DNA of 64,000 nucleotides from NCBI GenBank assembly GCA_028286685.1, contig JAQBRA010000002.1:65073-129072 (forward strand). Reading direction: 5' to 3'. The notes beneath the pieces are model-generated. The model did no database searches. It had not been told where the DNA came from and saw nothing but the letters and a program-made list of their open reading frames with translations. A program made the position numbers and the translations under genes. Source of the DNA: Candidatus Adlerbacteria bacterium (lineage in GTDB: Bacteria; Patescibacteriota; Minisyncoccia; Phycocordibacterales; SBAW01). This document shows positions 14,982 through 61,725 of this stretch, one piece after another (positions within the stretch are counted from its first letter, which is position 1; every line of letters begins with the position of its first letter).

Positions 14982-15137
14982 AGGCTGCGCAAAATCAGAT
15001 TTTTAGGAGTACGTATAATTTTTTGCTAAAAATTTACTCAGTCTCGGCGCCAGTCGCGCCTGCGAAGCCTCCTAAAACTCTATTTTGCTCCGCTACGGCA
15101 AACTTCGCTTGGCGAAGTTTGCCCGGTCTCTGTAAAA

Positions 15138-15230
15138 CCAAGCTTGCCGGAGTGTCTGTAGATTCGACGGAATCGAGGTTAGGGAATTTTTAGCAAAAAA
15201 TTCCCGCACTCCGGCAAGCTTGGTTTTTAT
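15138..15230. terminator. long-stem hairpin with a nested palindrome, probable msrB terminator
   Basis: The 17-bp perfect inverted repeat CCAAGCTTGCCGGAGTG...CACTCCGGCAAGCTTGG encloses GGGAATTTTTagcAAAAAATTCCC and is followed by TTTTTAT. Confidence 0.4.
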
Positions 15231-15246
15231 GGAGACCTTCTGTTTT

Positions 15247-17489: not shown

Positions 17490-17927
17490 TTACGCCTGGG
17501 CAGCGGGAGCGTCCGGAGTAGCCGGGGCTTGCGAAGCGTCGCCGTACATTATTTCCCAGACGTGGCTGTCCAGGTCGGTAAACGAGCGGGCGTACATCCA
17601 GCCATAATCATCGGCGGGGCGGTACTCGCGGCCGCCGGCAGCAACCGCCTTGCCGAGCATTTCATCTACCGCAGCGCGGCTCTCCAGCGAGATGCAGGTA
17701 AGCACTTCCTTGACCTTGCCCGCGTCGGCCTGCTCGTGGGCCGGGATAAAGCCCTTGAAGAACGGCTCGGTAACGAGCATGACATAGATGCTCCCCTCTT
17801 CGACTACCAGGCAGCCGGCCTGCTCGTTGGTAAACTGCGGATTAAAGGCAAAGCCCAGGGCCTTAAAAAACTCCATCGAGCGCGGCAGGTCCAGAACCGG
17901 CAGGTTTACGAATATTTGCTTTTGCAT
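17490..17927 (-). CDS. VOC/glyoxalase-like family protein
   Basis: Size and paired beta-alpha-beta pattern fit the family. The start position is uncertain by a few nucleotides. Confidence 0.45.
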   Translation of the reverse strand: MQKQIFVNLPVLDLPRSMEFFKALGFAFNPQFTNEQAGCLVVEEGSIYVMLVTEPFFKGFIPAHEQADAGKVKEVLTCISLESRAAVDEMLGKAVAAGGREYRPADDYGWMYARSFTDLDSHVWEIMYGDASQAPATPDAPAAQA

Positions 17928-17989
17928 ATGCAGATAGTATAGCAAAAGGGCCAAATTGCCTCCAGCGCCACTTGCTCAGCAGTTAGAGC

Positions 17990-19519
17990 TTAAACCCCGG
18001 ACGCCACGCCCCTAAAATGCTTCCATATCTCGTACATCGCCAAGGTATCGAGCTTGCAGTACTCGAGCATGTCCTTTTGCTTCTGCTCGGCCTCCTCGCC
18101 CTCAATTAGCGCGCGGGTCAGCTGGCGGTAGCCCTCTATGGCGTCGGTCCCGCTCTTAACCGGCAGCTCTTTGTACGACAAGCTCGGCACCAAGACGGGC
18201 AGCACCTTCTTGATAGAGGCACGGCCCATAAAGCCCGGGTGCACGTAGTGCTGGTGCTCCACAATATCCATAAGGTCGTAGGTGCGCTCCACCACGTTTA
18301 AGAAAAAGTCCTTATGCTCAGGCATCAGCGCGGCCATCTCCTTGTTGCGGCTGTTTTCAAACGCCTTGGACCACGATATAACCGTGCCCTTGGGGCCGAT
18401 ATGCGACACCAGCGCCTCGGCGATCTTTTCCGCCGGGTCGCCGCCCAATATCAGGTCGCCATAATGCTTAAGCTCGGCATCGGGTGCCTCGAGCACGTGG
18501 AGCGAATATTGAAAGACAATATGCTGGTAGGGCCGGTAGCCGCTAAAGGGCGGGATAGCTGTGGGATACGTCTCGTAGTCCAAAAAGTACAGCGGATACT
18601 CAAGCTTGTTTAGCTCCTCGGCAAGCCCCACCACATCAATGAGAGGCTCTTGCGAGAGATGCACGCGGACCTGGTTGAGCTTCTTTTCCGTAAGCCGGTC
18701 GTCATTCAGCGGCACATCCTTAACGTGCAAGACGCCGGCATGCAGCAGCTCTTCGAGATACTTTTTGCTCAGGCCAATACGGTTAAGGTCGTGGACGCTG
18801 TAGGCCGGCACGTCGGGGTTGATAAAGGCAAAGCTCGTGCAGTGCGCCGAGCGGCCCTTGTAGTAGCACGGGCAATGGCCCTCGGGCTGTACCGCCTGGC
18901 TCAGGTACTCTTGCGCATGCTTCATCTGATGCACCGCATTTTCCTGCGCCACCGCCATCGCCTCGGTCTTGTCCTCGAGTATAAAAAGGTTTGAGAAGTC
19001 CAAGTCGCCCTGGCGCACGTACTGCCTATTGAGCCGGACCAGGTACTTTTTATTGAGCTTAACGCCGCACGCCTCGACCACGTTTGCCTGGAAGGCCAGG
19101 TCGTACTCAAACTGCTCCTCTTTTTTCCTGTCCTTCCTGCCCTCTCCGTCCGCCTCAGACGAGGACATCTTTATCTCGTACAAGTCGTACGCCCCGGCAC
19201 CGGCGTTCCATACCAATACGTCGGTAGCGGCCAAGCAGGTGTCGGTGGCAAATACGGCCTGGAATAGTACCGGGGTCTGCTCGGCAACAAGCTTTTGAGT
19301 CAGCTCCTGGGCGCCCGCGTGGCGCTGCTCGATAAGGTAGCCGCCCGGAAACATCCCGCGCGCCAGCTCCTCGACCTCGTTGCCCATTTGGGCCAAAGCC
19401 TGTTCGAACTCCGATATCTCGTACTGGCTGTGTATGTCGGGCCGTTGGCGGCGCACCCAGGTGTTGTTAGGGCACTCCCTAAACATGATGTATTCGGTCT
19501 TGGAGAGCTTGGAGGCCAT
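17990..19519 (-). CDS. DUF2779 domain protein (Cas4/RecB-like nuclease fold)
   Basis: YFLDYETYPTAIPPFSGYRPYQHIVFQYSLHVL signature plus the Cys cluster CPCYYKGRSAHC. Confidence 0.55.
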   Translation of the reverse strand: MASKLSKTEYIMFRECPNNTWVRRQRPDIHSQYEISEFEQALAQMGNEVEELARGMFPGGYLIEQRHAGAQELTQKLVAEQTPVLFQAVFATDTCLAATDVLVWNAGAGAYDLYEIKMSSSEADGEGRKDRKKEEQFEYDLAFQANVVEACGVKLNKKYLVRLNRQYVRQGDLDFSNLFILEDKTEAMAVAQENAVHQMKHAQEYLSQAVQPEGHCPCYYKGRSAHCTSFAFINPDVPAYSVHDLNRIGLSKKYLEELLHAGVLHVKDVPLNDDRLTEKKLNQVRVHLSQEPLIDVVGLAEELNKLEYPLYFLDYETYPTAIPPFSGYRPYQHIVFQYSLHVLEAPDAELKHYGDLILGGDPAEKIAEALVSHIGPKGTVISWSKAFENSRNKEMAALMPEHKDFFLNVVERTYDLMDIVEHQHYVHPGFMGRASIKKVLPVLVPSLSYKELPVKSGTDAIEGYRQLTRALIEGEEAEQKQKDMLEYCKLDTLAMYEIWKHFRGVASGV

Positions 19520-19753
19520 GGGTCTATTGTACGGCCATTAGTGATCCCAAGTGGTACAAAATTGGAACCAGCCTATAATAGGAGAGCTTAGCAGGTGACT
19601 ACTCTTTGGACGGGACCTAAAGGCCGAGTTGGGCTAGTACTGCCATTGGGATTAGAACTATATGTATATCCCCTGCCTTGAGCGGCCGCCCGGCGAAAAT
19701 ATACCCTTAAAAAGGGCCGTTTTTAGCAGTGGTTTTTAGTGCTACATAGGACT

Positions 19754-19759
19754 ATAATG
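19754..19759 (+). promoter_or_regulatory. TATAAT -10 element 10 nt upstream of the kinase ATG (short or absent leader)
   Basis: Seen in the sequence. Confidence 0.3.
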
Positions 19760-19769
19760 GGCCCACGTT

Positions 19770-21830
19770 ATGAACCTAATTGGCAAGGTCGTAAATGGGT
19801 ATGAAATCGTTGAATTTATCAACGACGGAGGTTTCGGCGTGGTCTACAAGGCCGAGAAAGAAGGTAAACTATATGCTCTTAAGCTCTTTCGTGAGGCCTA
19901 TGTACTCAAGGAATATCGCAACGGTGGAGACAATCGCATACAGCGCGAGATAGACATTTTGAAGTCGGCGAACCACAAAAGCCTCGTGAACTACGTGGAT
20001 AACTTCGTCACAGACATTGACGGCTCTGCACACCACTTCCTAGTCATGGAGTTCATTGACGGCACAAACCTGCGAACGATAATCGACGGTAAAGGAAAGC
20101 TCGATGAGAAGACTGCTCTCCAATATTTCAACCAGGTCTTGGACGGCCTAGAAGCCTTACATCACACACCTGTGGCCGAGGGGGTCTCGGGAGTTGTCCA
20201 TAGGGATTTGAAGCCTGAAAATATACTTATTGACGGGGCGGGCCAAGTGAAAGTGTCCGATTTTGGCATCTCGAAAATCATCGATTTTACCTCTATAACA
20301 AGCACAGGTGACTTTATTGGCACGAGCCCTTACATGTCACCCGAGCAGATAGTCGACAGCAAGCACGTGGACCGGCGCTCCGATGTATACGCCCTCGGGG
20401 TACTGCTTTATGAAATGCTGACAGGCCAACATCCTCACGACTATCAATCTGAACCTGAGCTCATAGACAAGATAAAGAACGAACCCGCCATACCACCACG
20501 ACGCAGAGTTGCTGATATAAACAACGAAACCGAAAACGTTATCTTGCGATGTCTTGAAAAGCAACCGTACGGGCGTTTTAGTGACGTCGCGCAGTTGCGC
20601 CAGTCGCTCAACCAAAAGTCTGTCGTACTTACAAAGAAAAAATACGACCTCACGCCGCGATTTGTGCTACGGCTCTACGACGACAAAAGTACCTTGGAGA
20701 AGTACCTCCCCACTCACCAAAGTAAGTTCTTTGTAGAGTTCCCTGCAAACCTTGCCGATCATCAAAAGGGCCTCCTAAAAATTGTGCGTGAAAACAAGAA
20801 TGTGATTATGATTGTCGACCCAGCAACAGTGCGTCTCGCGTACGACACTTTCTCTGATGTCGAGGGTCTAAAACGACTTCCCTACGCAAGGGAGGATTTC
20901 CAGCCCATTACCCCAGACAACTTAAAGGACTACAAGGAGCAGAAGGAGTACGTAAAAAAAGTGCTGGATACAGAAGCAGAAATTGGTGCCGACATCTTAC
21001 TCGCACCCTTTCATTACACACACAATAGTAATATTTCGCTTACAACGGCTAACCCCCATGCCGAATGGTTCGACCTCGACGTGAAGCTTTTAAAAGAGGC
21101 TATCGACTATCGTGATGCAACCCCAGCACTACGTGACAAGCCACTATACGCCGGTATCTGCGTTAATCATACGTCGTTGAGCAACGATCGTGATTTGCGC
21201 CACATACTCAATACATTTTCAATTTTTGATTGCGACGGATACATGGTCTATGTCGATTGCATAGACGAAAACACCTCTCGCGCCACACTATCCAACTACA
21301 TCACTCTCTTGCGGGAACTCCAGTTAAAGACTGGGAAGCCGGTTATTGCCGCACGGGTAAATGGAATTGGTCTCGGCTTATTGTGCGCCGGCGTGGCAGG
21401 CTTTACCTCTGGCGCCGCACGCTTTGAAACCTTTAACGAGGACTTGTACAAGGTGGAGAGGCCATCTTTCAACCTGTACGAGCGCTACTATTACCCCACA
21501 CTGATGAAAGCAGTTGCCATCTTGCGCAAAGACCCCGCCCGTTTCGACCTCATTCGCGACAAAATAGGAATATGTACATGCCGTTATTGCGGCGGCAAAG
21601 ATGCAGCAGGATCGATACTGGCGGCAAATAATAAACTCCACTTCCTCGAAATGCGCGCTCAGGAGGTAGCGGAAATCGCTGCCTTGCCCGAAGGCGAACG
21701 GATCGGGCACTTCATCCAGAGAATAAGTACAGCGTTGGATAATTACGCTCTGCTCACGCCGAGCGTCTTTAAGCCATCCGACTATGCACACCTCAACGGT
21801 TGGAAAGATGTCTTTCAGAGGCTAAAATAG
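19770..21830 (+). CDS. Ser/Thr protein kinase fused to an uncharacterised ~400-aa C-terminal domain
   Basis: Kinase motifs are present: VYKAEKEGKLYALK (VAIK-like), HRDLKPENIL, DFG, SPE. Residues ~290-686 match no family I recognise; they alternate beta and alpha segments and contain a CTCRYCGG motif. Confidence 0.8.
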   Translation: MNLIGKVVNGYEIVEFINDGGFGVVYKAEKEGKLYALKLFREAYVLKEYRNGGDNRIQREIDILKSANHKSLVNYVDNFVTDIDGSAHHFLVMEFIDGTNLRTIIDGKGKLDEKTALQYFNQVLDGLEALHHTPVAEGVSGVVHRDLKPENILIDGAGQVKVSDFGISKIIDFTSITSTGDFIGTSPYMSPEQIVDSKHVDRRSDVYALGVLLYEMLTGQHPHDYQSEPELIDKIKNEPAIPPRRRVADINNETENVILRCLEKQPYGRFSDVAQLRQSLNQKSVVLTKKKYDLTPRFVLRLYDDKSTLEKYLPTHQSKFFVEFPANLADHQKGLLKIVRENKNVIMIVDPATVRLAYDTFSDVEGLKRLPYAREDFQPITPDNLKDYKEQKEYVKKVLDTEAEIGADILLAPFHYTHNSNISLTTANPHAEWFDLDVKLLKEAIDYRDATPALRDKPLYAGICVNHTSLSNDRDLRHILNTFSIFDCDGYMVYVDCIDENTSRATLSNYITLLRELQLKTGKPVIAARVNGIGLGLLCAGVAGFTSGAARFETFNEDLYKVERPSFNLYERYYYPTLMKAVAILRKDPARFDLIRDKIGICTCRYCGGKDAAGSILAANNKLHFLEMRAQEVAEIAALPEGERIGHFIQRISTALDNYALLTPSVFKPSDYAHLNGWKDVFQRLK

Positions 21831-21838
21831 CAGTAAGC

Positions 21839-22495
21839 ATGTTCCAGCTTGAAAAAGAGATGATTCCGGTGCTCAAAAGGGATCTATCGAGGATCTTTGG
21901 TGCAGTTCACGCTGCCGAAGAGTTCGTAAGCGGGAACGGTCGTCCAGATTTAGTATTTGCTCGTTTCACAAGCGAGACGTCCTCACGAGGCGCACTTGAT
22001 TACGAGACCCTCCACCTGCTCGTAAGACATTTAAATAAAGAAGGGCGCGTGTACCATGTGGACGAAGTGCTTGGAATTGACCTGCAAAACAGAAAGCGGG
22101 TACATGGCATACTCGATGTGTTGAGCAACTATGGCTTTGTGGAGTACCAAGACGACACCCATTTCATCGTCCGGAGGAAGTACCAACCAGTGGCAGACGA
22201 ATTTGTTTCGATAGAGGCAAAATTAAGTGACTGGAAGTCTGGTGTCAGTCAGGCCATAAGATACAAGTCTTTCTCTAACAGCACGTACCTTGCCATTTCC
22301 GAAGAATATTTAGACCGTGTAGATAGGCAAACCTTGCGCGCCAGCGGCGTTGGGCTTATTAGCGTATCAAGGGAGAATGCTTCGCTTATTTTAAAGGCAA
22401 GAACAAGTAAACCTAAAAGTATGGTATCCAACTACTACCTTACTGAACGCCTCGTTGACACAGTAAACAGTTCTCGAGCTAGTGCAATAGTTTAA
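21839..22495 (+). CDS. hypothetical protein with a PD-(D/E)xK-like motif set and a possible winged-helix tail
   Basis: GRPDLVFARF...VSIEAKLSDWKSGVSQAIRY resembles restriction-endonuclease-fold D...ExK...Q spacing. It lies just after the kinase gene. Confidence 0.35.
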   Translation: MFQLEKEMIPVLKRDLSRIFGAVHAAEEFVSGNGRPDLVFARFTSETSSRGALDYETLHLLVRHLNKEGRVYHVDEVLGIDLQNRKRVHGILDVLSNYGFVEYQDDTHFIVRRKYQPVADEFVSIEAKLSDWKSGVSQAIRYKSFSNSTYLAISEEYLDRVDRQTLRASGVGLISVSRENASLILKARTSKPKSMVSNYYLTERLVDTVNSSRASAIV

Positions 22496-22596
22496 GCTTT
22501 TTTGCGTATCATTTTGTGGTCAGTAAGGAAACCTATTCCCAAGGCGACAAGTCATCCGAAACGGCGCATGTAAAGAGAACAGGGAGTGCTTCTTGA

Positions 22597-22935
22597 TTAT
22601 TTCAATGTCTCGCAAGCAAGACCGTCTTTGTCCGCGTCGAGACGGTGAGGGTCAGAGCTAGGGCCGCCATTTGCAATAAAGAAGGCTTGCGCTTGTGCAT
22701 GCGTAGCAAAGTCAGGGCAGTTTTTGTCGACAAAGCCCGATTTAGCTGCAGTCTTGGCGACAGTCTTTGTAACTACCTTTGCCTCAGTTTTAACCGCAGG
22801 CTTGCTGTGGCAGTGGTAGTTTCCTGTTTTGCTCTCGGTATGGCAGCCTTTTGCGTCGGTGCGGCCGGGGGAAGCCAACGCCACCGCCGGAGCGATGGAA
22901 ATGGCGAGTACTAAACCGGCGAGCAGGGTGCGCAT
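22597..22935 (-). CDS. excalibur calcium-binding domain protein (secreted)
   Basis: Signal peptide and a C-terminal DADKDGLACE motif. Confidence 0.5.
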   Translation of the reverse strand: MRTLLAGLVLAISIAPAVALASPGRTDAKGCHTESKTGNYHCHSKPAVKTEAKVVTKTVAKTAAKSGFVDKNCPDFATHAQAQAFFIANGGPSSDPHRLDADKDGLACETLK

Positions 22936-22936
22936 A

Positions 22937-23152
22937 TTAGCCAATGGTGAAAGCAATAACGAGTGCAGCACCAAAGACGACCGCTGCCATAACGATTGCT
23001 ACAGCCATATTGCCCTGCCTAAGCTCCTCCCACTCGTTAATAGGGGTAATGAAGGAGAACAATTTAACCAAAATACCAAGGGAAATTGCCATCGAGATGG
23101 CGCCAGTAATAGCCCAGCCGAACGTTATAAAATACTGTGTAAATATGTCCAT
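22937..23152 (-). CDS. DUF350-like small membrane protein
   Basis: Two TM helices flanking NEWEELRQGNMAVAI. Confidence 0.4.
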   Translation of the reverse strand: MDIFTQYFITFGWAITGAISMAISLGILVKLFSFITPINEWEELRQGNMAVAIVMAAVVFGAALVIAFTIG

Positions 23153-23206
23153 GGCCCCAGAGTAGCAAATGTGGCGGATTTAGCTACCTACTTAAACTAA
23201 TATTGA

Positions 23207-23235
23207 CATAATAAACTTATGTATGTAATGTATTC
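23207..23235 (+). promoter_or_regulatory. sigma70-like promoter (TTGACA-N17-TAATGT) heading an ORF-poor stretch
   Basis: Seen in the sequence. Confidence 0.35.
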
Positions 23236-23702
23236 GCTGGCTGTTCCCTTTCGTCGGTTTGTCTAGTTGAGCCCCGAAAGGGGTTTCAGCTGCAATATCG
23301 ATGGAGGTATAAGATGGACGTTGTTCAATGGTTCTGTAGTAGCAGGAGTAATATGGCTGTTTGGTTGTGTAGATTCCTTGGGTGCGAGGTAAAGCATAGC
23401 AATCCCTCTCCCGTGGTTATACCACCCCTACCAGTTCCTCTTGTTACAAGACCACTGCCAAGCTCGACTTGTCTCAAGTCGTACTGCAGATGCAACCCCC
23501 ACCTTTGGATTTTTCATCTGGTCATGCAGCATCCTGGGATTAATACTCCTGGCATCCGTCGCAAGATGGGCTGCTACTGCACAGATAGAATTATTCAAGG
23601 AATCTTAGTCGACCTACGGACACAAGGGTATGTACGTATGCACGGCTACGGCCGATGGTCTACGTACTGGCCCAATGCCGTTCTGGTCGACAAATAGCCA
23701 AA

Positions 23703-23737
23703 CCGCGCGCTGCAAGGCGCGCGGTTTTTATTGTTTT
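23703..23737. terminator. hairpin terminator (CCGCGCGC-tgcaag-GCGCGCGG + T-run)
   Basis: It ends the plus-strand noncoding stretch and abuts the stop codon of the minus-strand DUF2726 gene. Confidence 0.5.
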
Positions 23738-24261
23738 AGAACCAATTTCTTTTCTACCTCCCCTTTTATAGCTTCCTTATCCAACTTATCGGCTCTTAAG
23801 TGCAAAATGGATACGCCAGCATCAGCCATCATGCTATCTACGAGGTCGTCCCTATCCATCCGACGAGGGATAGAGTGGCTGCCGCCATCTAGTTCTATAA
23901 CTAGTTGAGGCGCCGCACGCTCTTTGTCGCAGAGCAAAAAGTCGACCGATTTCCTATCTATCCGGCTTCTCAGCCTCATCCGCTCGCGGTAATCAAAGTC
24001 CTTGTTAGGCTCGATAAAATGAGTAAAATTGACCTGGGCAAATATATAAAACCTGTCGCCATACAGCTCAAGCAAAATCTTGTACATCTCAGCCTCAGTC
24101 TTGGTATCGAAAATTGAGGCCTTCTTATTAAAATATTTAACAGCCTCTTCTTTGCTTTGTATGAGCAAGGCTAAAGCAACCAATCCAACAAGAAGCACTG
24201 CGGTAATTGCCCAAACCCACCAAGGGATATGAGGCAACCCAAGTAATTCAAAAATGGACAT
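23728..24261 (-). CDS. DUF2726 (nuclease-related, restriction-endonuclease-like fold) protein with an N-terminal TM
   Basis: KSVDFLLCDKERAAPQLVIELDGGSHSIPRRMDRDDLVDSMMADAGVSILHLRADKL matches the DUF2726 core. Confidence 0.55.
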   Translation of the reverse strand: MSIFELLGLPHIPWWVWAITAVLLVGLVALALLIQSKEEAVKYFNKKASIFDTKTEAEMYKILLELYGDRFYIFAQVNFTHFIEPNKDFDYRERMRLRSRIDRKSVDFLLCDKERAAPQLVIELDGGSHSIPRRMDRDDLVDSMMADAGVSILHLRADKLDKEAIKGEVEKKLVLKQ

Positions 24262-24262
24262 A

Positions 24263-24484
24263 CTACTTAGCTAAAGGGCCATTATGAGTGGGCGCCTCTG
24301 TAGTCTTCTTTGAGACTATCGGGATATCTTTGCGAGTGTTTTCATCTATCTGCTCAAGCAAACTTACTATCCTATTTGTTTTCCAGTACCAAGTGAGCAA
24401 CTCTCTTACTACAAAAAAGCCTACAAGCACCAAAAAGACGAACAAAAGCGGGTCGGTCCCAAAACTTGGGAGGTTTAGATTCAT
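24263..24484 (-). CDS. small membrane protein
   Basis: One TM helix. Located 1 nt downstream of the DUF2726 gene. Confidence 0.3.
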   Translation of the reverse strand: MNLNLPSFGTDPLLFVFLVLVGFFVVRELLTWYWKTNRIVSLLEQIDENTRKDIPIVSKKTTEAPTHNGPLAK

Positions 24485-24601
24485 GCCACCAGTATATCCC
24501 CGTATGAAGGACTCAATATTACGATGTGCACAGCTACTGATTTAATTACGTAAACAAAAAACCGCCTCACCGAGAAGGTCCCGGTGAGGGGAGGTCTTCT
24601 G

Positions 24602-25216
24602 CTAGTGGGCGGTCAATAACACTCTTCTGCCCGTGCCGAGAATATAGGGACGCGAGATCGGATCGTTGTCCCATTCCTCATTGCGTCGCTCTGCCCTCTC
24701 CTGCACTTCGTCCATGCACATATCAATGAGCCACTGTGGTAAAACGAAGCAGCCATACATGATACGGGTCTCGTCGTAGTACCGAACTTGTCCGTACTCG
24801 ATGGCCCGAATGAGGGTATGAATGAACGCATTGAACGCCCATTCGACGCAGTGGTTATGATCTGGGAGGAGGGGACCTCCGCGCCGATCATGCCCCTTTG
24901 CTACGTCTCTCGCCCAAGCGGCCATATACGATACCAACTGTGCATCGACGGGTACGAAATCTTTAGTGGCAAACGCCTTCTCGATTGCACTGAAGAAAGC
25001 CTTGCCCAGCGGGTCGGGCGGCAACTCCTTAAGGGAGCTTAGGTCCGCAGTTCCGTATTCCTGCACCAAAACATAGTCCCAGAGACGCTTTATGTTAGCT
25101 TCTTCATTATCCCAAAAGCGCATGATGTGCTCTTTTCTCAAACCCCCTTTGTTCGGCAGAGGGTAAAACCGTACTATAGCTTTTTCTATTATATACCAAA
25201 ATATATATTTTGTCAA
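24602..25216 (-). CDS. hypothetical protein
   Basis: The ORF has protein-like composition. I cannot recognise the family. Confidence 0.35.
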   Translation of the reverse strand: MTKYIFWYIIEKAIVRFYPLPNKGGLRKEHIMRFWDNEEANIKRLWDYVLVQEYGTADLSSLKELPPDPLGKAFFSAIEKAFATKDFVPVDAQLVSYMAAWARDVAKGHDRRGGPLLPDHNHCVEWAFNAFIHTLIRAIEYGQVRYYDETRIMYGCFVLPQWLIDMCMDEVQERAERRNEEWDNDPISRPYILGTGRRVLLTAH

Positions 25217-25438
25217 CTAAGACTGTGCCGAAAAAATCTTGGAGGGGCTGGTGTGGCCCGACAAAAGGCGAACATCCGCTAAGGGCAGATTGAGGTGGGC
25301 GGCTACCAGCTCGCGCACGCGATGGTTGGCCAAGTTGCGCTCGGCGGGCTCTTTGACCCAGATTTTAAGCCGCCCCTTGGGCAGCTCTTCGACCAGCTCC
25401 TTTTTGGCCCCCGCCACCACCCGAACGCTTACATACAT
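25217..25438 (-). CDS. DUF167 (YggU/UPF0235) family protein
   Basis: MYVSVRVVAGAKK...LKIWVKEPAERNLANHRV...LLSGHTSPSK. Confidence 0.5.
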   Translation of the reverse strand: MYVSVRVVAGAKKELVEELPKGRLKIWVKEPAERNLANHRVRELVAAHLNLPLADVRLLSGHTSPSKIFSAQS

Positions 25439-25776
25439 ACTTACTTCCTTACTTCCGCTTTCCTCCCGGCCAGCAGACGGGGCACACGCCCGTGCCGCGG
25501 TATTTGTGGCCACGGGTGCACGTGCGCCAGACATTCTTAGTTTTTTTGATCATAAGTATCACATCTCCACTGCCCCAACACTACACCTATTCCCACCCTC
25601 ACGACTTTTTATTCTAGCTTTCTGCAGAAGCCTGGAGTGGATTCGGTAGGCTTTTGCTCTGCCATATGCCCTTATAGTACACCCGACAAGAAGCCTTCAA
25701 GTCCCTCCCTCCTGCATAACAAAATAATAAAAGTGGCCGATCCGAAGCGTCGGAACAGCACAGCAAGGCGAACCAG

Positions 25777-25800
25777 ACGCCCGGGCGTTTTTCTTTTGCC
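25777..25800 (+). terminator. terminator-like hairpin, short member of a three-copy family
   Basis: ACGCCCGGGCGT followed by TTTTCTTTTGCC. Confidence 0.35.
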
Positions 25801-25882
25801 CCTGTCGTACGACAATTGCCAAATAGGCCTATTTATTGTATTTTGCCTGCAGACTAGAGAACAACCACAGAGAGGCTAGCTC

Positions 25883-26479
25883 ATGACAACCCTTGTAGCG
25901 CCCCTTACCGGGGAGAGCTTGGAGACCATCCAGTCGCTCGCGCGGAACGTATTCCTGGATGGCGAATGCTATGCGTTTGCCATCGGGCTCAGCCGGGGCC
26001 TTGGCTGGTCTATGGTCGGGCTTATGGAAGGGCCGGTGATCCGGCACGCTCTGGCCTACAACCCAAAAAAGCCCTCCGGCCTGGGCGTGCTCTACGATGT
26101 GCGCGGCAAGCTGGCTCTAAACGAGCCGGAGCTCGGCAACCCTTTCCACCATCGTCCGCCGTATATACTGCGCGAAGTAACCGAGGACGACCTGCGCGCC
26201 GTGCGACCCGTACACGAGCGCAGCATTGCTATGGCCGGCCGGATGGCAGAGGCCATGTGGCCGCACCTGCCCTGGAAACAGGGCCTGGCCGTCCGCGCCA
26301 AGGCATTTGCCGACGCGCTTGCTGCCCTCAGCCGCGAGCACGGGTTTTGGATACGAAGCCCTTACGACACCATGCGCCCCATCCTTTCGGAAGCGCACGG
26401 CGACGAGCGGGGCTACACGATCCGCATACTCGACGACGGGATGGCGTACACTATCGACCGCAGGCTTACCGACGCATGA
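25883..26479 (+). CDS. hypothetical protein (198 aa)
   Basis: The ORF has balanced composition. The overlapping R-rich frame 25966..26739 was rejected. Confidence 0.4.
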   Translation: MTTLVAPLTGESLETIQSLARNVFLDGECYAFAIGLSRGLGWSMVGLMEGPVIRHALAYNPKKPSGLGVLYDVRGKLALNEPELGNPFHHRPPYILREVTEDDLRAVRPVHERSIAMAGRMAEAMWPHLPWKQGLAVRAKAFADALAALSREHGFWIRSPYDTMRPILSEAHGDERGYTIRILDDGMAYTIDRRLTDA

Positions 26480-26493
26480 TAAAAGGAGAACGC

Positions 26494-26739
26494 ATGGCAA
26501 CATCGCCATATCTCTTCGTTCCGGACGAATTCGTTGTCTGGCGCGAACAGGACCAGCCGAACCTTGCAGAGACGCTCGAAGAGTTAAAAAGCGAGTACGG
26601 CGACGGGCCTTTCAGGGTAGAAAGCGTCCAGCTTGAGGAGGAGAACTTGAAGCATCCTCAAGTCGTAACGATCTGGTCCTCCCGCGCAGGCTCCTCAGTG
26701 CCCTTCTCGGGACACTGGTTTAATCCGGTCTCCAACTAG
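26494..26739 (+). CDS. hypothetical small protein (81 aa)
   Basis: AGGAGA ribosome-binding site, and a terminator follows directly. Confidence 0.4.
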   Translation: MATSPYLFVPDEFVVWREQDQPNLAETLEELKSEYGDGPFRVESVQLEEENLKHPQVVTIWSSRAGSSVPFSGHWFNPVSN

Positions 26740-26746
26740 AACAGAA

Positions 26747-26780
26747 CGCCCGGACCATTGGTCCGGGCGGTTTTCTTTGC
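26747..26780 (+). terminator. terminator hairpin, copy A of the repeated element
   Basis: CGCCCGGACC-att-GGTCCGGGCG followed by GTTTTCTTTGC. Confidence 0.55.
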
Positions 26781-26781
26781 A

Positions 26782-27189
26782 CTAGTTTATAAGGTCGTGC
26801 AGCGTCATTTTTATCTTATGCGCGACAGCATCCAGCTGTTCTTGCTCCTCAGCATCCACCTTATCGTCTACATATAAAGTTTTGCGGATGATATCCATGG
26901 AGTCCAGATACGCATACACTCGCTGTGTAACCAGGCGCGACACAGCCCTATGGTCCGGCGCGCAAGGCGCGTATTCTTTTGCCACAGTTACCAAGTACCA
27001 AAACTCATACGCGTGAGTAATGGAAAACTGGTGCCGGAGGTCGATAACTTGCAACTGGCGCTTCATCTCCTTGTCGAGCACCGAAAGAGTATGCACTTTC
27101 CATGCCTTATTTTTGTATACCGATTTCAAGATCGGCATGCCGTAGCGGATCGCCGAGTGCTCCGGCGGAAACCTCTGCTTCCATTCCAT
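26782..27189 (-). CDS. hypothetical protein (135 aa)
   Basis: ORF only. Confidence 0.35.
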   Translation of the reverse strand: MEWKQRFPPEHSAIRYGMPILKSVYKNKAWKVHTLSVLDKEMKRQLQVIDLRHQFSITHAYEFWYLVTVAKEYAPCAPDHRAVSRLVTQRVYAYLDSMDIIRKTLYVDDKVDAEEQEQLDAVAHKIKMTLHDLIN

Positions 27190-27276
27190 AAGGATCTCCC
27201 CTTCTGCCCACCACTGTACTCTCCTGCCCTAAAAAAGAAAGACTGGCAGTTGGATTCATGCACCCAGCAAATAGCG

Positions 27277-27311
27277 CGCCCGGACCAATGGTCCGGGCGT
27301 TTTTCTTTTCC
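27277..27311 (+). repeat. terminator-like hairpin, copy B of the repeated element
   Basis: CGCCCGGACC-aat-GGTCCGGGCG followed by TTTTTCTTTTCC; near-identical to copy A. Confidence 0.5.
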
Positions 27312-27327
27312 TATCGGCAAGCCTGGG

Positions 27328-27720
27328 CTAGATGTCGCCGAGCTCGAACAGATTTATTTCGACCCCGGCCCCTTCCGCGGCCTTTTGCATGGCGCTTATG
27401 TACGGCTTCCACCCGTCACTCGCCTCAACATAAAAGTCGAGTTCCGTGATGCCGAAGTTGGTCATCTGGATGCCAACCTTGCGCGCAAGATCCTCGATAA
27501 CCGCCTCGTCGTCGGGCAGGCGATAATCGTAATGATGCAGCTCCTGGGTGCTGTGCAGCAGGCCGAATCTTCCCGACAAGATGTAATAGTCGGCTTTTTG
27601 GGTCCCGGCAATGTTCTCGACTTGCGCAATGTGCCGGCCCAAATAGAGCTGCGAGGCCGGCATCTGGTCGGGGTCTGCCCGCTTCTTCCAGCTGCAGATA
27701 GTGGCAACGGCTTTTTTCAT
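27328..27720 (-). CDS. hypothetical protein (130 aa)
   Basis: ORF only. Confidence 0.35.
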   Translation of the reverse strand: MKKAVATICSWKKRADPDQMPASQLYLGRHIAQVENIAGTQKADYYILSGRFGLLHSTQELHHYDYRLPDDEAVIEDLARKVGIQMTNFGITELDFYVEASDGWKPYISAMQKAAEGAGVEINLFELGDI

Positions 27721-27790
27721 GACACCTCTCTTTAAAGAATTGTTCCACTTCTACCCTACCAATACTTGGGGGATTTTGCCACGAACGCTC

Positions 27791-28141
27791 CTATGCGCTT
27801 TTCTCCGCTAGGCGCAGCCTTTGGCGCAGGGCTTTATGCTCGGGGCACGCCTGCGCCACCAGCGCCCAAAAATGGGGCCCATGGTTAAACTCGCGCAAAT
27901 GGCACAGCTCGTGGACGATGACATAGTCGGCGACCTCGGGCGGCAAAAACAGGAGCTTATAGGAAAAGTTGAGGTTGCCCTTGCTCGAGCAGCTGCCCCA
28001 GCGGCTCTTGGAGTTCTTTATAAATACGCGCCTGAGCGTATGGTTGTAGTAGCGGTTGTAGTGCGCGAGCCTAGTGTGGACCAGGGCGCGGGCGGCCTCT
28101 TTGTGGGCCGCGTAGTGCTTGGAATTTCTGCGGCGGAGCAT
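27791..28141 (-). CDS. DUF45/YgjP-like zinc metallopeptidase domain protein (short)
   Basis: IVHELCHLREFNHGPHFW is an HExxH...NH motif. Confidence 0.55.
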   Translation of the reverse strand: MLRRRNSKHYAAHKEAARALVHTRLAHYNRYYNHTLRRVFIKNSKSRWGSCSSKGNLNFSYKLLFLPPEVADYVIVHELCHLREFNHGPHFWALVAQACPEHKALRQRLRLAEKSA

Positions 28142-28147
28142 TATTTT

Positions 28148-29590
28148 TTAGTATACCTCTATGGCCTGTGTAAAGGGAGTCTCGTATGGCTCGACTTTGA
28201 GGGTGCCGCGGGCGCGGCGACCATTGAGCAAAAAGCGGCTGAGTATCTTGTAGCTATCGAGGTCAAACACCACCTCGTGGCGCTGCGAGGATACTTCGCC
28301 CTCTGCGTACTCGACGGTCTCCACCAGGCACCACTGGTTGACCACGTAGGCCGTACCCTCGCCCTCGTCGTTCTCGTCGCGCACGACTATGGCGCCCTTA
28401 AATGGCCAGGATTTTATCTTGTAGCGGGCAAAGGCCGCGGCTACACGCTTGTTGTAGCTCGCGGGCGTTTCGGCACCCGTGCACGCTCCTGCGCACCATT
28501 CGAGCTGCCGGCCCCAGCAGGCCCCGCCGCCCTTCTCAAGCCCCAGAAGCTTGCCGCACAGGCCCTTTTCTTTAGCGAGCGAGCGCAAAAAGGCCTTGGC
28601 TTGTGCGCGGGTGCGGCATACGCCCAAGATATTATTAAAGTCCTTGGCTTCAATTTCCGAGCGGTACTCGACATCAGCCGCCGTGTAACCCTCGGCAGTG
28701 GCCCGGGAAACGATAAGCGCCAGCTGTTTGTGCTTGCGCAAAACGCGATTGTAGGTGGGCAGCAACTCCTTGACGAGCTTGGATTCCAAAAACAGTGCGC
28801 CCAGCTCGCCTGAAGTTTCGCGATATTCGATATCGGCCGTGTCCTGGCACATGCGCATTTCTTTGGCAGATGCGTGATCGTTTGAAAAATGGGACAGCAC
28901 CCGCGTACGCAGCGTAACGCTCTTGCCCACGTACAAGACCTCGCCATCTGCTGCGTAGAAAATATAGACGCCGGGGCGGTTGGGTATGGCGCTGATTACC
29001 TCGCGGCTGAGCTGCGAGGGCAGCGTGTTGGACTTAAGCGCGCGATCTATGGCGCCTCTAAGCGCCTCGGTGCCCAAGCCTTTTTCGGCCGAGCGCAAAA
29101 ACTCCCACACCACCTGCGCGTCGTCCATGGCGCGATGCCGGTTGGCGCACGCTATGCCGTGCGCGGCCATGACCTCGTCTAGGTTGTGGCGCGCCTGCAG
29201 CGGGTACAAGGCGCGCGAGAGCTTGACCGAGCATAGGGTTTTAGCTCGATAGGGCTGCTCGATGCGAGCGAACTCGGCCTTGATAAACGCGTAGTCAAAG
29301 CGGGCGTTGTGCGCCACGAATACGGCGCCATCGAGCATTTCGCGGATGTCTTCTGAGACCTGGTCGAAGGTCGGGGCATTCTCCAGCTCCTCATTGCTGA
29401 TGCCGGTAATGCCCATGATGACGTGCGAGATGCGGCGCTCGGGCCTGATGAGCGAGTGATATTTCTTGACCACCCTGCCGTCTTCCACGCGCAATATGCC
29501 TATCTCGATAATCCCGCCATGCGCCGGACTCATGCCAGTCGTTTCAGTATCGACTATGGCGTACGTTCTTGATTTGAGGCTGTGTACCAT
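28148..29590 (-). CDS. DnaQ-like 3'-5' exonuclease fused to a GIY-YIG nuclease domain
   Basis: N-terminal YAIVDTETTG...HNARFD (DEDDh exonuclease), then PGVYIFYAADGEVLYVGKS (GIY-YIG). Confidence 0.8.
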   Translation of the reverse strand: MVHSLKSRTYAIVDTETTGMSPAHGGIIEIGILRVEDGRVVKKYHSLIRPERRISHVIMGITGISNEELENAPTFDQVSEDIREMLDGAVFVAHNARFDYAFIKAEFARIEQPYRAKTLCSVKLSRALYPLQARHNLDEVMAAHGIACANRHRAMDDAQVVWEFLRSAEKGLGTEALRGAIDRALKSNTLPSQLSREVISAIPNRPGVYIFYAADGEVLYVGKSVTLRTRVLSHFSNDHASAKEMRMCQDTADIEYRETSGELGALFLESKLVKELLPTYNRVLRKHKQLALIVSRATAEGYTAADVEYRSEIEAKDFNNILGVCRTRAQAKAFLRSLAKEKGLCGKLLGLEKGGGACWGRQLEWCAGACTGAETPASYNKRVAAAFARYKIKSWPFKGAIVVRDENDEGEGTAYVVNQWCLVETVEYAEGEVSSQRHEVVFDLDSYKILSRFLLNGRRARGTLKVEPYETPFTQAIEVY

Positions 29591-37350: not shown

Positions 37351-38283
37351 CTATTTTACGTAGGGCCCGATGGCGCTCCGGATAGAATCACGCAACTTTA
37401 CCAACTCGGGATACTGGTAGAAGAAAAGAATCTTTTGGTCTTTGACAAGAGAGCCGGTCGGCTTTGCGCGAAGAACAAAGTCGGTGAACGCCTCGGCAAT
37501 ATCCTCCTCGGGGCCCGTGGCCGCATAAACCGTCGTAAAACTGTTCTTGTTCTGCGCGTAGTAAAGGTCAGTCGCGCCGGTCGTCGCCGAATCTTTGGCC
37601 GCTTTTTGGGCCGACGCTGTCCAGAACTTCTGTGCAAATGCCGAGAGGTAGGAGTCCGTGAGCGTGCATCCATCCCCATTCGTTGCATACAGGTTTGCCT
37701 TTCTGCACTTGAGTTTGTTGATCTTCTTATAGTCTACTTGCGAAGAGTTAAGGGTGATAAGGTGCGCATATTCGTGGACCAGCGTTATGGAGATGTCGCG
37801 CTTCCATGCTGCATTTGAGAAGTTGATGCCGTTGGTATTGATAGCGAGGCCAAAGGCGGGATTCTTGCTGTTTACGCGCGCAACGAAGCCCAAAACCGGG
37901 CTTGGCAGCTTGTACGTAATGTATTGGCGGATGTTCTTATCAATGAAATCCCAGCCCGCTATGCCGGCAAAAATATCCCACACCTTTTGCTCGTCAGGAT
38001 TCGGCTTGTAGGCGCTCGAATTTTTCTCAAGCTTTTTGTTGAAGACGACGTAATCGGTGACAACGTCGCCGGCATCATATTGGATATCCTCCATGGCCTC
38101 GACGCCAATAGGCACGTTTAGCGAAGAGCGGTCAACACTCCAAGTTTGGGGCGCGGCAGCGGGATTAGGGATAGTAGAAAGGGGTGTCGCTTTGCCTGCC
38201 GCGTGGGCAGTTAAATGACTTGGACTTATAACCAGCATGGCAACAACTACCGCAAAATAGGAAAAAAGCCTCCGTCGATTCAT
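37351..38283 (-). CDS. secreted HExxH metallopeptidase-like protein
   Basis: Signal peptide and a LVHEYAHLITLN zincin motif. This marks the start of a visibly AT-richer stretch. Confidence 0.45.
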   Translation of the reverse strand: MNRRRLFSYFAVVVAMLVISPSHLTAHAAGKATPLSTIPNPAAAPQTWSVDRSSLNVPIGVEAMEDIQYDAGDVVTDYVVFNKKLEKNSSAYKPNPDEQKVWDIFAGIAGWDFIDKNIRQYITYKLPSPVLGFVARVNSKNPAFGLAINTNGINFSNAAWKRDISITLVHEYAHLITLNSSQVDYKKINKLKCRKANLYATNGDGCTLTDSYLSAFAQKFWTASAQKAAKDSATTGATDLYYAQNKNSFTTVYAATGPEEDIAEAFTDFVLRAKPTGSLVKDQKILFFYQYPELVKLRDSIRSAIGPYVK

Positions 38284-38664
38284 AAAATAATAATTAAAAG
38301 TAATTCCTTCTATTGTGGAGCTTCCACCTGAAGGATTGGTGAAATATAAGCAAAAAACCCGAATGGTACCTGACAGTATTTTCCTCCCCTCTCCCCTTTT
38401 CTTAAACAATTTTAATACAAAGCGACAGTTTCTATTAGATTATGTACAGAACGTAACTTACTGGGACGACAAGATTGAACTTCGCGGATTTGTACCAGTG
38501 AAGTCAAAAGCTTACGCAGATGGAGAAAGTCGAAGTGAATTAGGAAAACTGGAATTCCGCATAAGTGGACATCTTCCAAGGATTGGAGGGATAAAGATTG
38601 AAAGAAGACCTTACGCCTCAACAGAGGTTATAGGCAGGAAGGAGTATGATCTATTGGCTTCCAG

Positions 38665-38886
38665 TTAAACTAATTTGAGAAAAAGAAGTAGGAACCATAC
38701 TGAAAATATTAGGCTACTTAGAACCAATCTAAAGGAATGTATTTGGAACAAGAAATCCCTGTCCTCCTTTTCAAAGTTTAAGAAAACTTTTGTACGAACC
38801 TTATAAGAGAACGGCTCGGAAACCATCATTCCAATACTTGTAAGAAACACTAGAAAACTAAACGCAGATAAGATTAACCAAATCAT
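38665..38886 (-). CDS. small membrane protein (candidate orphan immunity protein)
   Basis: Two TM helices. AT-rich, in a tandem series downstream of the RHS toxin. Confidence 0.35.
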   Translation of the reverse strand: MIWLILSAFSFLVFLTSIGMMVSEPFSYKVRTKVFLNFEKEDRDFLFQIHSFRLVLSSLIFSVWFLLLFLKLV

Positions 38887-38938
38887 AAATATTTTTAATT
38901 ATCTATACTTCCCGTCCCTGAATCTAGAGTATTATTAT

Positions 38939-39208
38939 TTATTTTTTGAAAAAATGCTTATACCCCATTCTCAAAGTCACGACAAACAAAACAGAAAGAA
39001 TAATAATTCCCACCCAAGATCTTACCAAGTTTACCTCTGGAGGAAAATAATTTGATAAACGAGTCAAGATAGCGAAAAAGAGAGCAACTAGTGCACCTAT
39101 GCTTAAAAAGAGGTCTTCTTTATCGTTACTTTTATTCCAGTTATAGAGGCAAAAAATAACAAGAGCAACACCGAGTGCTGGAAAGATTAAAACTTCAAAG
39201 TGTAGCAT
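38939..39208 (-). CDS. small membrane protein (candidate orphan immunity protein)
   Basis: Two to three TM helices. Confidence 0.35.
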   Translation of the reverse strand: MLHFEVLIFPALGVALVIFCLYNWNKSNDKEDLFLSIGALVALFFAILTRLSNYFPPEVNLVRSWVGIIILSVLFVVTLRMGYKHFFKK

Positions 39209-39221
39209 TTACTTTTTTAAA

Positions 39222-39425
39222 CTACTTATCCGAAGGCGGAGATTTGAGTTTGACTACCAACATCGCTAGAGCGGCAATACCAAAGCAGACTACAAAAATG
39301 GTAATTAGGTCGTGAAAAATATTACTGACCTGGACGAGGGCAATTATTGTCACAGCGAATACCACCCACCCCTCCCATGAGGCCGGGTATAATCCTTTAT
39401 CTTTTTTGAACCAGTATTTATTCAT
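39222..39425 (-). CDS. small membrane protein (candidate orphan immunity protein)
   Basis: Two TM helices. Confidence 0.35.
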   Translation of the reverse strand: MNKYWFKKDKGLYPASWEGWVVFAVTIIALVQVSNIFHDLITIFVVCFGIAALAMLVVKLKSPPSDK

Positions 39426-39436
39426 AAGTAATATAA

Positions 39437-39916
39437 TTACACATTTCCAGCAAGTTTTTCAGCATAACCACTAAGTTCTATATTAGGATTTAGTTGTTTA
39501 AGATCTTTAACAAGTCTACCAAGAGTTTTTTCTGAAAACAGAGTGATGCGAAACTCAATATACTTTATACTCCCATCCTGGTCTTTATAAAAAATATAAA
39601 GGGACCGAAATGATCCTTTAGCTGTTTTATAAGTTGCCTGGTCATTGATTTCAGTTATTGAGTCGATATTAACGGTTCTTCGATAAAAAAAGAGATAGAC
39701 GTATGTGAGAGTGTTGTTTGTGATAGATGCATATGAATAACAAGTGGTAATAAGTAGAAAAAAGGCCCAAAATATTACCCAAATTAATAGCCCCTTAATA
39801 GCGACATCCGTACCAAGATCAGGGTTACGGTTTAGATATAAAGTAAATGCCATTAATACACCAGCACTAACTCCAATCATAAGAATACTCTTCCAGTCAG
39901 TAGTATACTTTTTCAT
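39437..39916 (-). CDS. membrane protein directly downstream of the RHS toxin gene and overlapping it (candidate cognate immunity protein)
   Basis: Three to four TM helices. Its start overlaps the toxin stop codon by 4 nt. Confidence 0.45.
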   Translation of the reverse strand: MKKYTTDWKSILMIGVSAGVLMAFTLYLNRNPDLGTDVAIKGLLIWVIFWAFFLLITTCYSYASITNNTLTYVYLFFYRRTVNIDSITEINDQATYKTAKGSFRSLYIFYKDQDGSIKYIEFRITLFSEKTLGRLVKDLKQLNPNIELSGYAEKLAGNV

Positions 39917-61654: not shown

Positions 61655-61725
61655 CTGCCAGACTTGGATTCGAACCAAGATAAACGGATTCAGAGTCCGT
61701 TGTCCTACCATTAGACGATCTGGCA
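61655..61725 (-). tRNA. tRNA-Gln (anticodon CTG)
   Basis: Hand-folded cloverleaf: acceptor TGCCAGA/TCTGGCA, D-arm GTCT-AATGGTA-GGAC, anticodon arm ACGGA-CTCTGAA-TCCGT, T-arm CTTGG-TTCGAAT-CCAAG, discriminator G. CCA is not encoded. Confidence 0.8.

Follow-up and report, generated by a model that had tools for sequence, protein, structure and literature searches.

The described systems closest to the locus reported here are the type I toxin mRNAs of hok/sok (plasmid R1) and aapA1/IsoA1 (Helicobacter pylori). These are monocistronic, highly structured mRNAs of a few hundred nucleotides (nt), in which a long-distance clamp pairs the 5' and 3' ends, the Shine-Dalgarno (SD) sequence is sequestered in the full-length molecule and a metastable fold forms transiently in the nascent RNA (PMC5416894, PMC6733600). 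Their sequences are locked by segments with two alternative partners. Translational riboswitches and RNA thermometers are characterized by a conserved 5' untranslated region (UTR), an anti-SD:SD pairing and a mutually exclusive helix that frees the SD. On the protein side, the ArsR/SmtB, MarR/MexR and BlaI/MecI families carry a winged helix-turn-helix (wHTH) DNA-binding domain of three helices and a beta-wing, and local regulators of this kind are commonly encoded divergently from their neighbors. In this study, we analyzed a 64,000-nt stretch of contig JAQBRA010000002.1 from a Candidatus Adlerbacteria bacterium (hereafter the window) and focused on an unannotated plus-strand unit of ~490 nt. 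The unit combines these known kinds, a wHTH regulator and fold-back or SD-sequestering control of its mRNA, and matches no Rfam or Pfam family. It is probably a monocistronic mRNA that encodes a small wHTH regulator and whose translation is gated by RNA folding.

The main result of this study is a correction. A preliminary description of the region had presented it as a candidate large noncoding RNA, possibly a decayed gene, and had regarded its only plus-strand open reading frame (ORF, 23314-23697) as Cys/Trp-rich and unprotein-like. The composition is indeed unusual (8 Cys, 5 Trp, 1 Glu and 2 Ala), but the homologues identify the ORF as a real, unannotated gene, which the gene caller of the source assembly also overlooked. 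Two of its features had escaped notice, namely the GGAGG-N6-ATG site and the closeness of the stop codon to the terminator stem, which begins 2 nt downstream. An ORF of this length occurred in 0.4-0.8% of dinucleotide shuffles of the region (p 0.004-0.008). The absence of minus-strand ORFs from the region, claimed earlier, holds for long ORFs only, and minus-strand ORFs of 33-56 amino acids (aa) exist.

An exhaustive HMMER scan of 1.84 billion representative proteins revealed three homologues: P0067 (122 aa, E 3.9e-27, locus L003), P0068 (134 aa, E 7.7e-18, loci L004-L007) and P0069 (112 aa, E 3.5e-6, locus L008). A word-indexed protein search with the window ORF gave no match, and a repeat search with the family profile gave no further members. 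Scanning genomes with the profile added one Parcubacteria metagenome-assembled genome (MAG; L009, RYN_382), in which the gene is identical to P0069/L008 and is annotated by NCBI as hypothetical protein MDB5244490.1. The family has four known members, all of them hypothetical or unannotated. The wHTH protein of the window is absent from a collection of 15 billion proteins because gene calling in the public assembly left 22496-23727 empty.

The open frame, the start codon and the GGAGG SD are retained in the four loci (112-134 codons) at a nucleotide identity of 50-58%. In the codon-guided alignment, the conserved C-terminal block shows 22, 23 and 55 differences at codon positions 1, 2 and 3, respectively, and pN is ~0.30 against a pS of 0.64-0.94, with synonymous sites saturated. 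Conserved residues such as the R and Y of GRW.TY are encoded by varying synonymous codons. The excess of third-position changes and the ORF retained in the four loci point to a selected reading frame, which a noncoding gene would lack, and the noncoding reading fails because protein-coding homologues were found. Gene decay is likewise contradicted by the maintained ORF, start and SD, by the third-position substitutions and by the wHTH model described below.

Structure prediction places a wHTH in the C-terminal 65 residues, and on this basis the product is most likely a small regulator that binds DNA. AlphaFold2 modelled residues 57-125 at a pLDDT of 83-92, with helices at residues 62-72, 78-85 and 91-104 and strands at 107-110 and 117-120. 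Almost all of the top 50 Foldseek matches in the PDB were wHTH regulators or domains, most at a probability of 0.99-1.00; they include ArsR, MexR/MarR, MecI/BlaI, the DNA-binding domain of Fur and IclR, and the best structural matches were 6j05, 1lnw, 1okr and 1p6r. A profile of the four proteins matched the BlaI wHTH (1p6r) over residues 60-120 at E=0.006. The window protein showed no significant match to any Pfam, NCBIfam, PADLOC or PHROG family, and single members gave sub-threshold matches to HTH_DeoR, HTH_27 and LexA_DNA_bind (E 0.007-0.02). The predicted C-terminal domain thus resembles those of ArsR/SmtB, MarR/MexR and BlaI/MecI in its three helices and beta-wing, and the gene is divergent from its neighbors as in many small wHTH repressors. 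However, the protein differs from the ArsR, MarR and BlaI repressors in that no Pfam or NCBIfam model reaches threshold and that only four members are known. The wHTH lies behind a variable, probably disordered half of 55 residues, modelled at low confidence and carrying conserved Cys, and no dimerization helices like those of MarR and ArsR are modelled. Cys53 and Cys89 are invariant; Cys89 lies within the C-terminal domain and the other conserved Cys residues are N-terminal. These cysteines, present in both protein halves, might bind a metal or sense the redox state. The protein is probably a local regulator.

Although the unit is not noncoding, the suggestion that it forms a novel structured RNA was supported, and the structured RNA is the mRNA itself, together with its leader and end clamp. 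The window transcript folds at a minimum free energy (MFE) of -202 kcal/mol, with a centroid structure almost identical to the MFE structure. Relative to dinucleotide shuffles, the sense and antisense strands gave z=-7.0 and -3.9 in the window, -9.05 and -4.4 in L003, and -9.13 and -4.9 in L004. After regression on GC content, the transcript segment ranked second among 508 window/strand segments. The antisense strands fold 17-26 kcal/mol worse than the sense strands, and each sense MFE structure contains 21-25 G:U pairs with ~70% of the bases paired. The gap between strands and the G:U pairs argue for selection on the sense RNA rather than on DNA palindromes.

The structure extends into the coding sequence (CDS). 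When the CDS alone was compared with synonymous-codon shuffles that keep the protein, z was -5.8 in the window, -3.5 in L003 and -4.2 in L004; 35 other genes of the window gave a mean of -0.18 (sd 0.86, minimum -1.77). For the codon-guided alignment of these three sequences, the RNAalifold consensus outperformed column shuffles over the whole transcript (z=-9.4) and over the leader (z=-4.8), as well as over the CDS with codon position preserved (z=-3.7). Among the 125 consensus pairs, 54 are invariant, 14 show one-sided changes and 18 are compensatory. The hairpin over the S-T-C-L-K-S codons is kept with a shifted register and compensatory changes, and the hairpin motif CCCCGAAAGGGG pointed out in the preliminary description was located at 23272-23283. 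A scan against Rfam 15 at gathering and permissive thresholds found no relevant family. In the preliminary description, no match to RNase P, tmRNA, SRP or 6S motifs had been recognized by eye. The only match in the window at gathering score is a tRNA at 61655, and the best match in the region is Leu_leader, over the terminator, at 24.5 bits against a threshold of 50.

The leader is better conserved than the CDS: over its 77 nt it is 82-88% identical, as compared with 50-58% for the CDS. Since the MAFFT alignment of the leader misaligned L008, individual folds were used instead. In these folds the anti-SD CCCTTTCGTCGG pairs with ATCGATGGAGG and the apex is CCCC-GAAA-GGGG; written as RNA, CCCUUUCGUCGG is paired to AUCGAUGGAGG. 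The hairpin has an energy of -31.7 kcal/mol in the window and of -31 to -35 kcal/mol across the four members, with the same architecture; it is significant in L008 as well. The predicted probability that the SD is unpaired is ~0.01, and the SD is paired in the four homologues. The stem shows two compensatory and two one-sided changes, the compensatory ones in L004 being C:G to U:A and G:U to U:G.

The same leader can fold in a second way. The 5' end together with the anti-SD (GGCUG-U-UCCCUUUCG) is a perfect Watson-Crick complement of CGAAAGGGG-UUU-CAGCU, the 3' half of the apical hairpin, and this alternative helix leaves the SD free. In the three close loci (the window, L003 and L004) it is the MFE structure of the 55-nt nascent RNA, at z -3.4 to -5.1, and an analogous anti-SD:GGGG helix forms in the nascent RNA of L008. 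The locked hairpin becomes the MFE structure once the SD has been transcribed, and opening the SD then costs 4.2-8.1 kcal/mol (13.3 kcal/mol in L008). Both conformations of the leader exist in the folding calculations. The possession of two pairing partners by each segment would explain why the leader sequence is frozen, as it is in the toxin mRNAs.

The window contains no further copies of the leader motif. A metagenome scan with the leader 20-mer CCCCGAAAGGGGTTTCAGCT returned the known L004/L005 contigs and five false positives (L010-L014), in which the same letters coincidentally encode a P-E-R-G-F-S stretch of five unrelated coding sequences. These look like rsmH methyltransferase genes. 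Such coincidences call for caution in pattern-based searches with the leader motif.

The ends of the transcript are predicted to be closed. In the window, nt 1-7 (GGCUGUU) form a 7-bp clamp with nt 455-461 (AAYAGCC) in both the MFE structure and the partition function, and the clamp is predicted independently at equivalent positions in L003 and L004. The 3' arm, AAUAGCC in the window, abuts the terminator, so that neither end is left single-stranded. AAYAGCC lies 1-3 nt before the terminator stem in all three loci. It overlaps the stop codon of the window ORF, belongs to the 3' UTR of L003 and is part of the codons for Q-Q-P in L004; its occurrence in three reading-frame contexts indicates that conservation acts on the nucleotides. 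One clamp pair is preserved by a change from G:U to G:C, and the clamp site GGCTGTT is unique in the window.

Another string near the 3' end, CGTTGATTAAC, is conserved in L003 (1573-1600), L004 (3600-3625) and L008 (895-915). It holds the stop codon in L003 and L008 (K-R-stop), is read in another frame in L004 (S-L-I-N) and has been lost from the window (23670-23699). Because the frames differ, the C-terminal tails of the proteins differ by shifts of frame or stop, with the underlying RNA sequence retained.

From promoter to terminator, the unit is self-contained and monocistronic, with a sigma-70-type promoter. The boxes TTGACA and TAATGT and their 17-nt spacer had been read correctly in the preliminary description, which placed them at 23207-23235, ~4 nt from their actual position (23203 start). 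All four aligned loci have TTGAC(A/G), and the -35 box lies 29 nt 5' of the conserved TGGCTG in the window and L003 alike. At equal spacing, the -10 hexamers of the other loci are TAGTTT (L003), TATGGT (L004) and TAGATT (L008), and the L004 site was reported by the consensus scan. The geometry TTGAC(A/G)-N16/17-TAnnnT is common to the four loci; the spacing to GGCTG is constant in the three close ones, and in L008 a GGCT box directly follows the -10 box. The GC-clamped hairpin with a T-run, described earlier at 23703-23737, was confirmed as a terminator, but its stem occupies 23700-23727 (12 bp with 8 G-C pairs) and is followed by TTTTTATTGTTTT. It also scores on the minus strand, where it would serve the convergent DUF2726 gene. 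Homologous terminators are present in L003, L004 and L008, with four compensatory pairs. The coordinates of the features are listed in Table 1.

Table 1. Features of the wHTH transcription unit in the window.
Feature	Position	Strand	Basis or remark
-35 box TTGACA	23203..23208	+	read directly from sequence
-10 box TAATGT	23226..23231	+	17-nt spacer after -35 box
Predicted transcript start (~G23239) and 5' clamp arm GGCTGTT	23239..23245	+	8 nt after -10 box
SD-sequestering leader hairpin	23248..23307	+	individual folds, conserved architecture
Switch segment CGAAAGGGG...CAGCT	23275..23291	+	complementary to 5' end and anti-SD (23239-23253)
SD sequence GGAGG, 6 nt 5' of ATG	23303..23307	+	invariant in four homologues
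CDS, 127-aa protein	23314..23697	+	homologues, pN vs pS, ORF length, synonymous-shuffle structure
wHTH-encoding region, residues 57-125	23482..23688	+	AlphaFold2, Foldseek, profile match
3' clamp arm AATAGCC	23693..23699	+	overlaps TAG stop; pairs with 23239-23245
Intrinsic terminator: 12-bp GC-rich stem, 4-nt loop, T-run	23700..23740	+	terminator scan and homologous terminators

These features suggest how the mRNA might work. The mRNA is strongly selected for a compact, closed fold in which neither end is single-stranded, and, from what is generally known of 5'-end-dependent RNA decay, closed ends should make it long-lived. Hairpins that contain the SD affect translation initiation quantitatively, and on this basis the locked SD is predicted to leave the mature RNA very poorly translated. 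In the nascent RNA, the competing helix would form first, before the SD is transcribed, and the SD would be open. Translation would probably be confined to this brief co-transcriptional window or would need a trigger that favors the SD-open state. Candidate triggers are cleavage of the long leader helix and the binding of a protein or an RNA to the apical element of the leader. Afterwards, the RNA would relax to its stable, silent form.

Several observations weigh against this interpretation. The -10 box of the window is weak: it retains the critical T1, A2 and T6 of TATAAT (3/6 positions) and was skipped by the strict consensus scan. The transcription start is a prediction from promoter geometry. 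The codon-usage score of the window ORF is poor (-0.39), although a poor score is expected if RNA structure constrains synonymous sites. In the distant L008, the whole-transcript sense z is only -2.7, the CDS is not significant against synonymous shuffles (z=-1.4) and there is no obvious 3' clamp. Of the consensus pairs, 39/125 are broken in one sequence, nearly all of them in the body, and each homologue folds the N-terminal part of its CDS in its own way. Selection in that part seems to favor overall compactness, not a single set architecture. With four distinct members, three of them close, the covariation is weak, and it appears suggestive rather than decisive. In silico loss of the 3' clamp keeps the SD paired (P(unpaired) 0.009-0.015), which means that clamp and SD lock are not thermodynamically coupled; the clamp is more likely to be a stability element than a translational switch. 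Finally, the conservation of the leader sequence could partly reflect a DNA operator.

This last point leads to the rival explanation that survives best, though we consider it improbable: an ordinary regulator gene whose leader is a DNA operator for autorepression, the RNA hairpins being incidental to DNA palindromes. wHTH dimers typically bind palindromic operators, and CCCCGAAAGGGG and CAGCTG are perfect DNA palindromes at +34 to +54. It is the leader sequence itself, beyond its pairing, that is conserved at 82-88%, and even L008, the distant member, retains CCCCGA(C)AAGGGG. However, incidental palindromes would not account for sense strands that fold 17-26 kcal/mol better than antisense strands with G:U pairs in use, and the G:U to A:U and C:G to U:A changes found in stems keep RNA pairing, not DNA symmetry. 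Nor can an operator explain why structure extends through the CDS at its synonymous positions, and DNA offers no rationale for either the anti-SD/SD logic or the 5'-3' clamp. As an addition to folding-gated translation, an operator is plausible and compatible.

Slightly less probable still is a dual-function RNA that encodes the wHTH protein and in addition has a regulatory or scaffolding role of its own, perhaps by sponging a protein or by partnering the protein it encodes. Such a role would account for selection on structure throughout the body. The selected and partly conserved structure of the CDS in three homologues (z -3.5 to -5.8) would fit such a role, as would the long life suggested by the closed ends and the SD lock, which implies that most molecules are untranslated. 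On the other hand, the helices of the body are conserved only in part and the N-terminal region folds differently in each homologue, a pattern that fits compaction or stability better than a specific functional architecture, and the window offers neither a trans target nor a second conserved motif.

The likeness to toxin mRNAs raises the question of whether the gene supplies the toxin of a module akin to type I toxin-antitoxin systems, or is some other selfish or defence gene that limits itself, with a stable but translationally inert mRNA that processing activates. The clamp, the sequestered SD and the distinct nascent fold match the hallmarks of hok and aapA1 in silico, and the gene sits in an island of 48% GC (58% in the rest of the window) with a PD-T4-6-like kinase and a DUF2726 nuclease-like gene. 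The L003 copy adjoins an Mrr-type restriction enzyme, and the flanking genes differ at each locus. We nevertheless regard this explanation as quite unlikely. The products are soluble wHTH proteins of 112-134 aa (127 aa in the window) without a transmembrane segment, whereas the toxins are hydrophobic membrane peptides of <=60 aa. No sign of an antisense RNA gene emerged from a consensus scan, which can miss weak promoters and which found no sigma-70-like promoter on the antisense strand of the window, L003 or L004. The SD is held by a local leader hairpin rather than by a long-distance interaction, and in silico 3' trimming leaves it paired and does not activate the mRNA. There is no sequence or Rfam similarity to hok or aapA1, no PADLOC match for the ORF, and no phage, plasmid or viral match. 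A large noncoding structured RNA, with the ORF an untranslated by-product of nucleotide conservation, is very hard to sustain: the exceptional folding (z -7 to -9), the poor codon score, the Cys/Trp-rich composition low in Glu and Ala, the silence of the source assembly's gene caller and the lack of a Pfam match speak for it, but not the ORF open in four loci despite 50-58% nucleotide identity, the third-position excess with pN << pS, the invariant GGAGG-N6-ATG, the varying synonymous codons of conserved residues or the conserved block that models as a canonical wHTH at a pLDDT of ~90.

The mRNA also departs from the other described controls. In comparison with riboswitches, it has no recognizable ligand pocket and no Rfam family; in comparison with RNA thermometers, its hairpin of -31 to -35 kcal/mol is far too stable. 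In contrast to other SD-sequestering leaders, selection on structure here spans the whole coding region and closes the RNA ends. We put forward, tentatively and as a less likely extension of folding-gated translation, that the locus may represent an undescribed class of self-locking mRNA in Parcubacteria-like bacteria of the candidate phyla radiation (CPR), in which the folding logic of toxin mRNAs (clamped ends, a locked ribosome-binding site and an open state that passes during transcription) controls a transcription factor. With similar reserve, the RNA of such a class might be stored in a long-lived, silent form until a trigger arrives, or might have a second function of its own.

The wHTH gene lies in a low-GC island (~19.5-25.5 kb, 47-50% GC against ~58% in the rest of the window) that looks horizontally acquired. 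The island starts with a 686-aa Ser/Thr kinase, whose kinase domain scores against two PADLOC models, PD-T4-6 and MADS6 (E down to 1e-68), and whose gene overlaps a 231-aa gene; it also contains a YHYH/Excalibur gene, a DUF350 membrane protein gene, the wHTH element, DUF2726 and several unknowns. Logan contig L001 (run SRR13312974) is 100% identical to window positions 17715-28436. The segment in which no gene was called by the public assembly (L001 4710-5941) holds three good ORFs, namely YHYH/Excalibur (NCBIfam E=3e-13), DUF350 (Pfam E=4e-11) and wHTH. Both immediate neighbors of the wHTH gene are on the opposite strand; the genes divergent from it are DUF350-YHYH/Excalibur in the window, the Mrr-type nuclease in L003 and DUF3761 in L004, and no partner gene is conserved across the loci. 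The closest named relatives of the DUF2726 neighbor are in Parcubacteria and Patescibacteria MAGs. Its closest relative (L002, 77% identity) lacks the element, and the similarity ends at the end of the gene. From the homologue in MAG RYN_382 and these relatives, the wHTH family probably comes from Parcubacteria. Neither blastn of the region against collections of plasmids and phages nor scans of viral contigs with the protein, the profile and a leader 23-mer produced a match. A mobile element or inverton, considered because of the 7-bp terminal inverted repeat, was rejected: conservation extends beyond the repeats to the promoter and terminator, and there are no target duplications, longer repeats or recombinase.

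Three other sites in the window deserve mention. The strongest GC-corrected folding outlier of the window, on both strands, is a 265-nt intergenic region at 14982-15246 (surrounding segment 14986-15485). It forms three long, nearly perfect hairpins, one with a stem of ~40 bp that encloses further hairpins; the minus-strand RNA gives z=-10.6 and there is no Rfam match. These could be stacked bidirectional terminators, REP-like palindromes or a novel RNA. At 38000-40000, just downstream of a 2535-aa ORF on the minus strand (39913-47520), the GC content drops to 35-40%. Two palindromic repeats of 25-32 nt (26745-26778 and 27277-27308), 94-100% identical in both orientations and ~530 nt apart, flank ORF 26782-27189 and may be terminators or REP-like elements.

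The results presented here define an orphan family of small winged-helix proteins that is tiny and probably parcubacterial. Its mRNAs are likely to be among the most strongly structured coding RNAs, with leaders conserved better than the proteins. In the variable N-terminal half, codon choice may follow from RNA pairing, which may explain the odd amino-acid composition there. Should the two-state leader and the clamp gate translation, fold-back control would not be limited to toxin genes, and the unit of ~490 nt would provide a compact model for the coexistence of coding and structural constraints.

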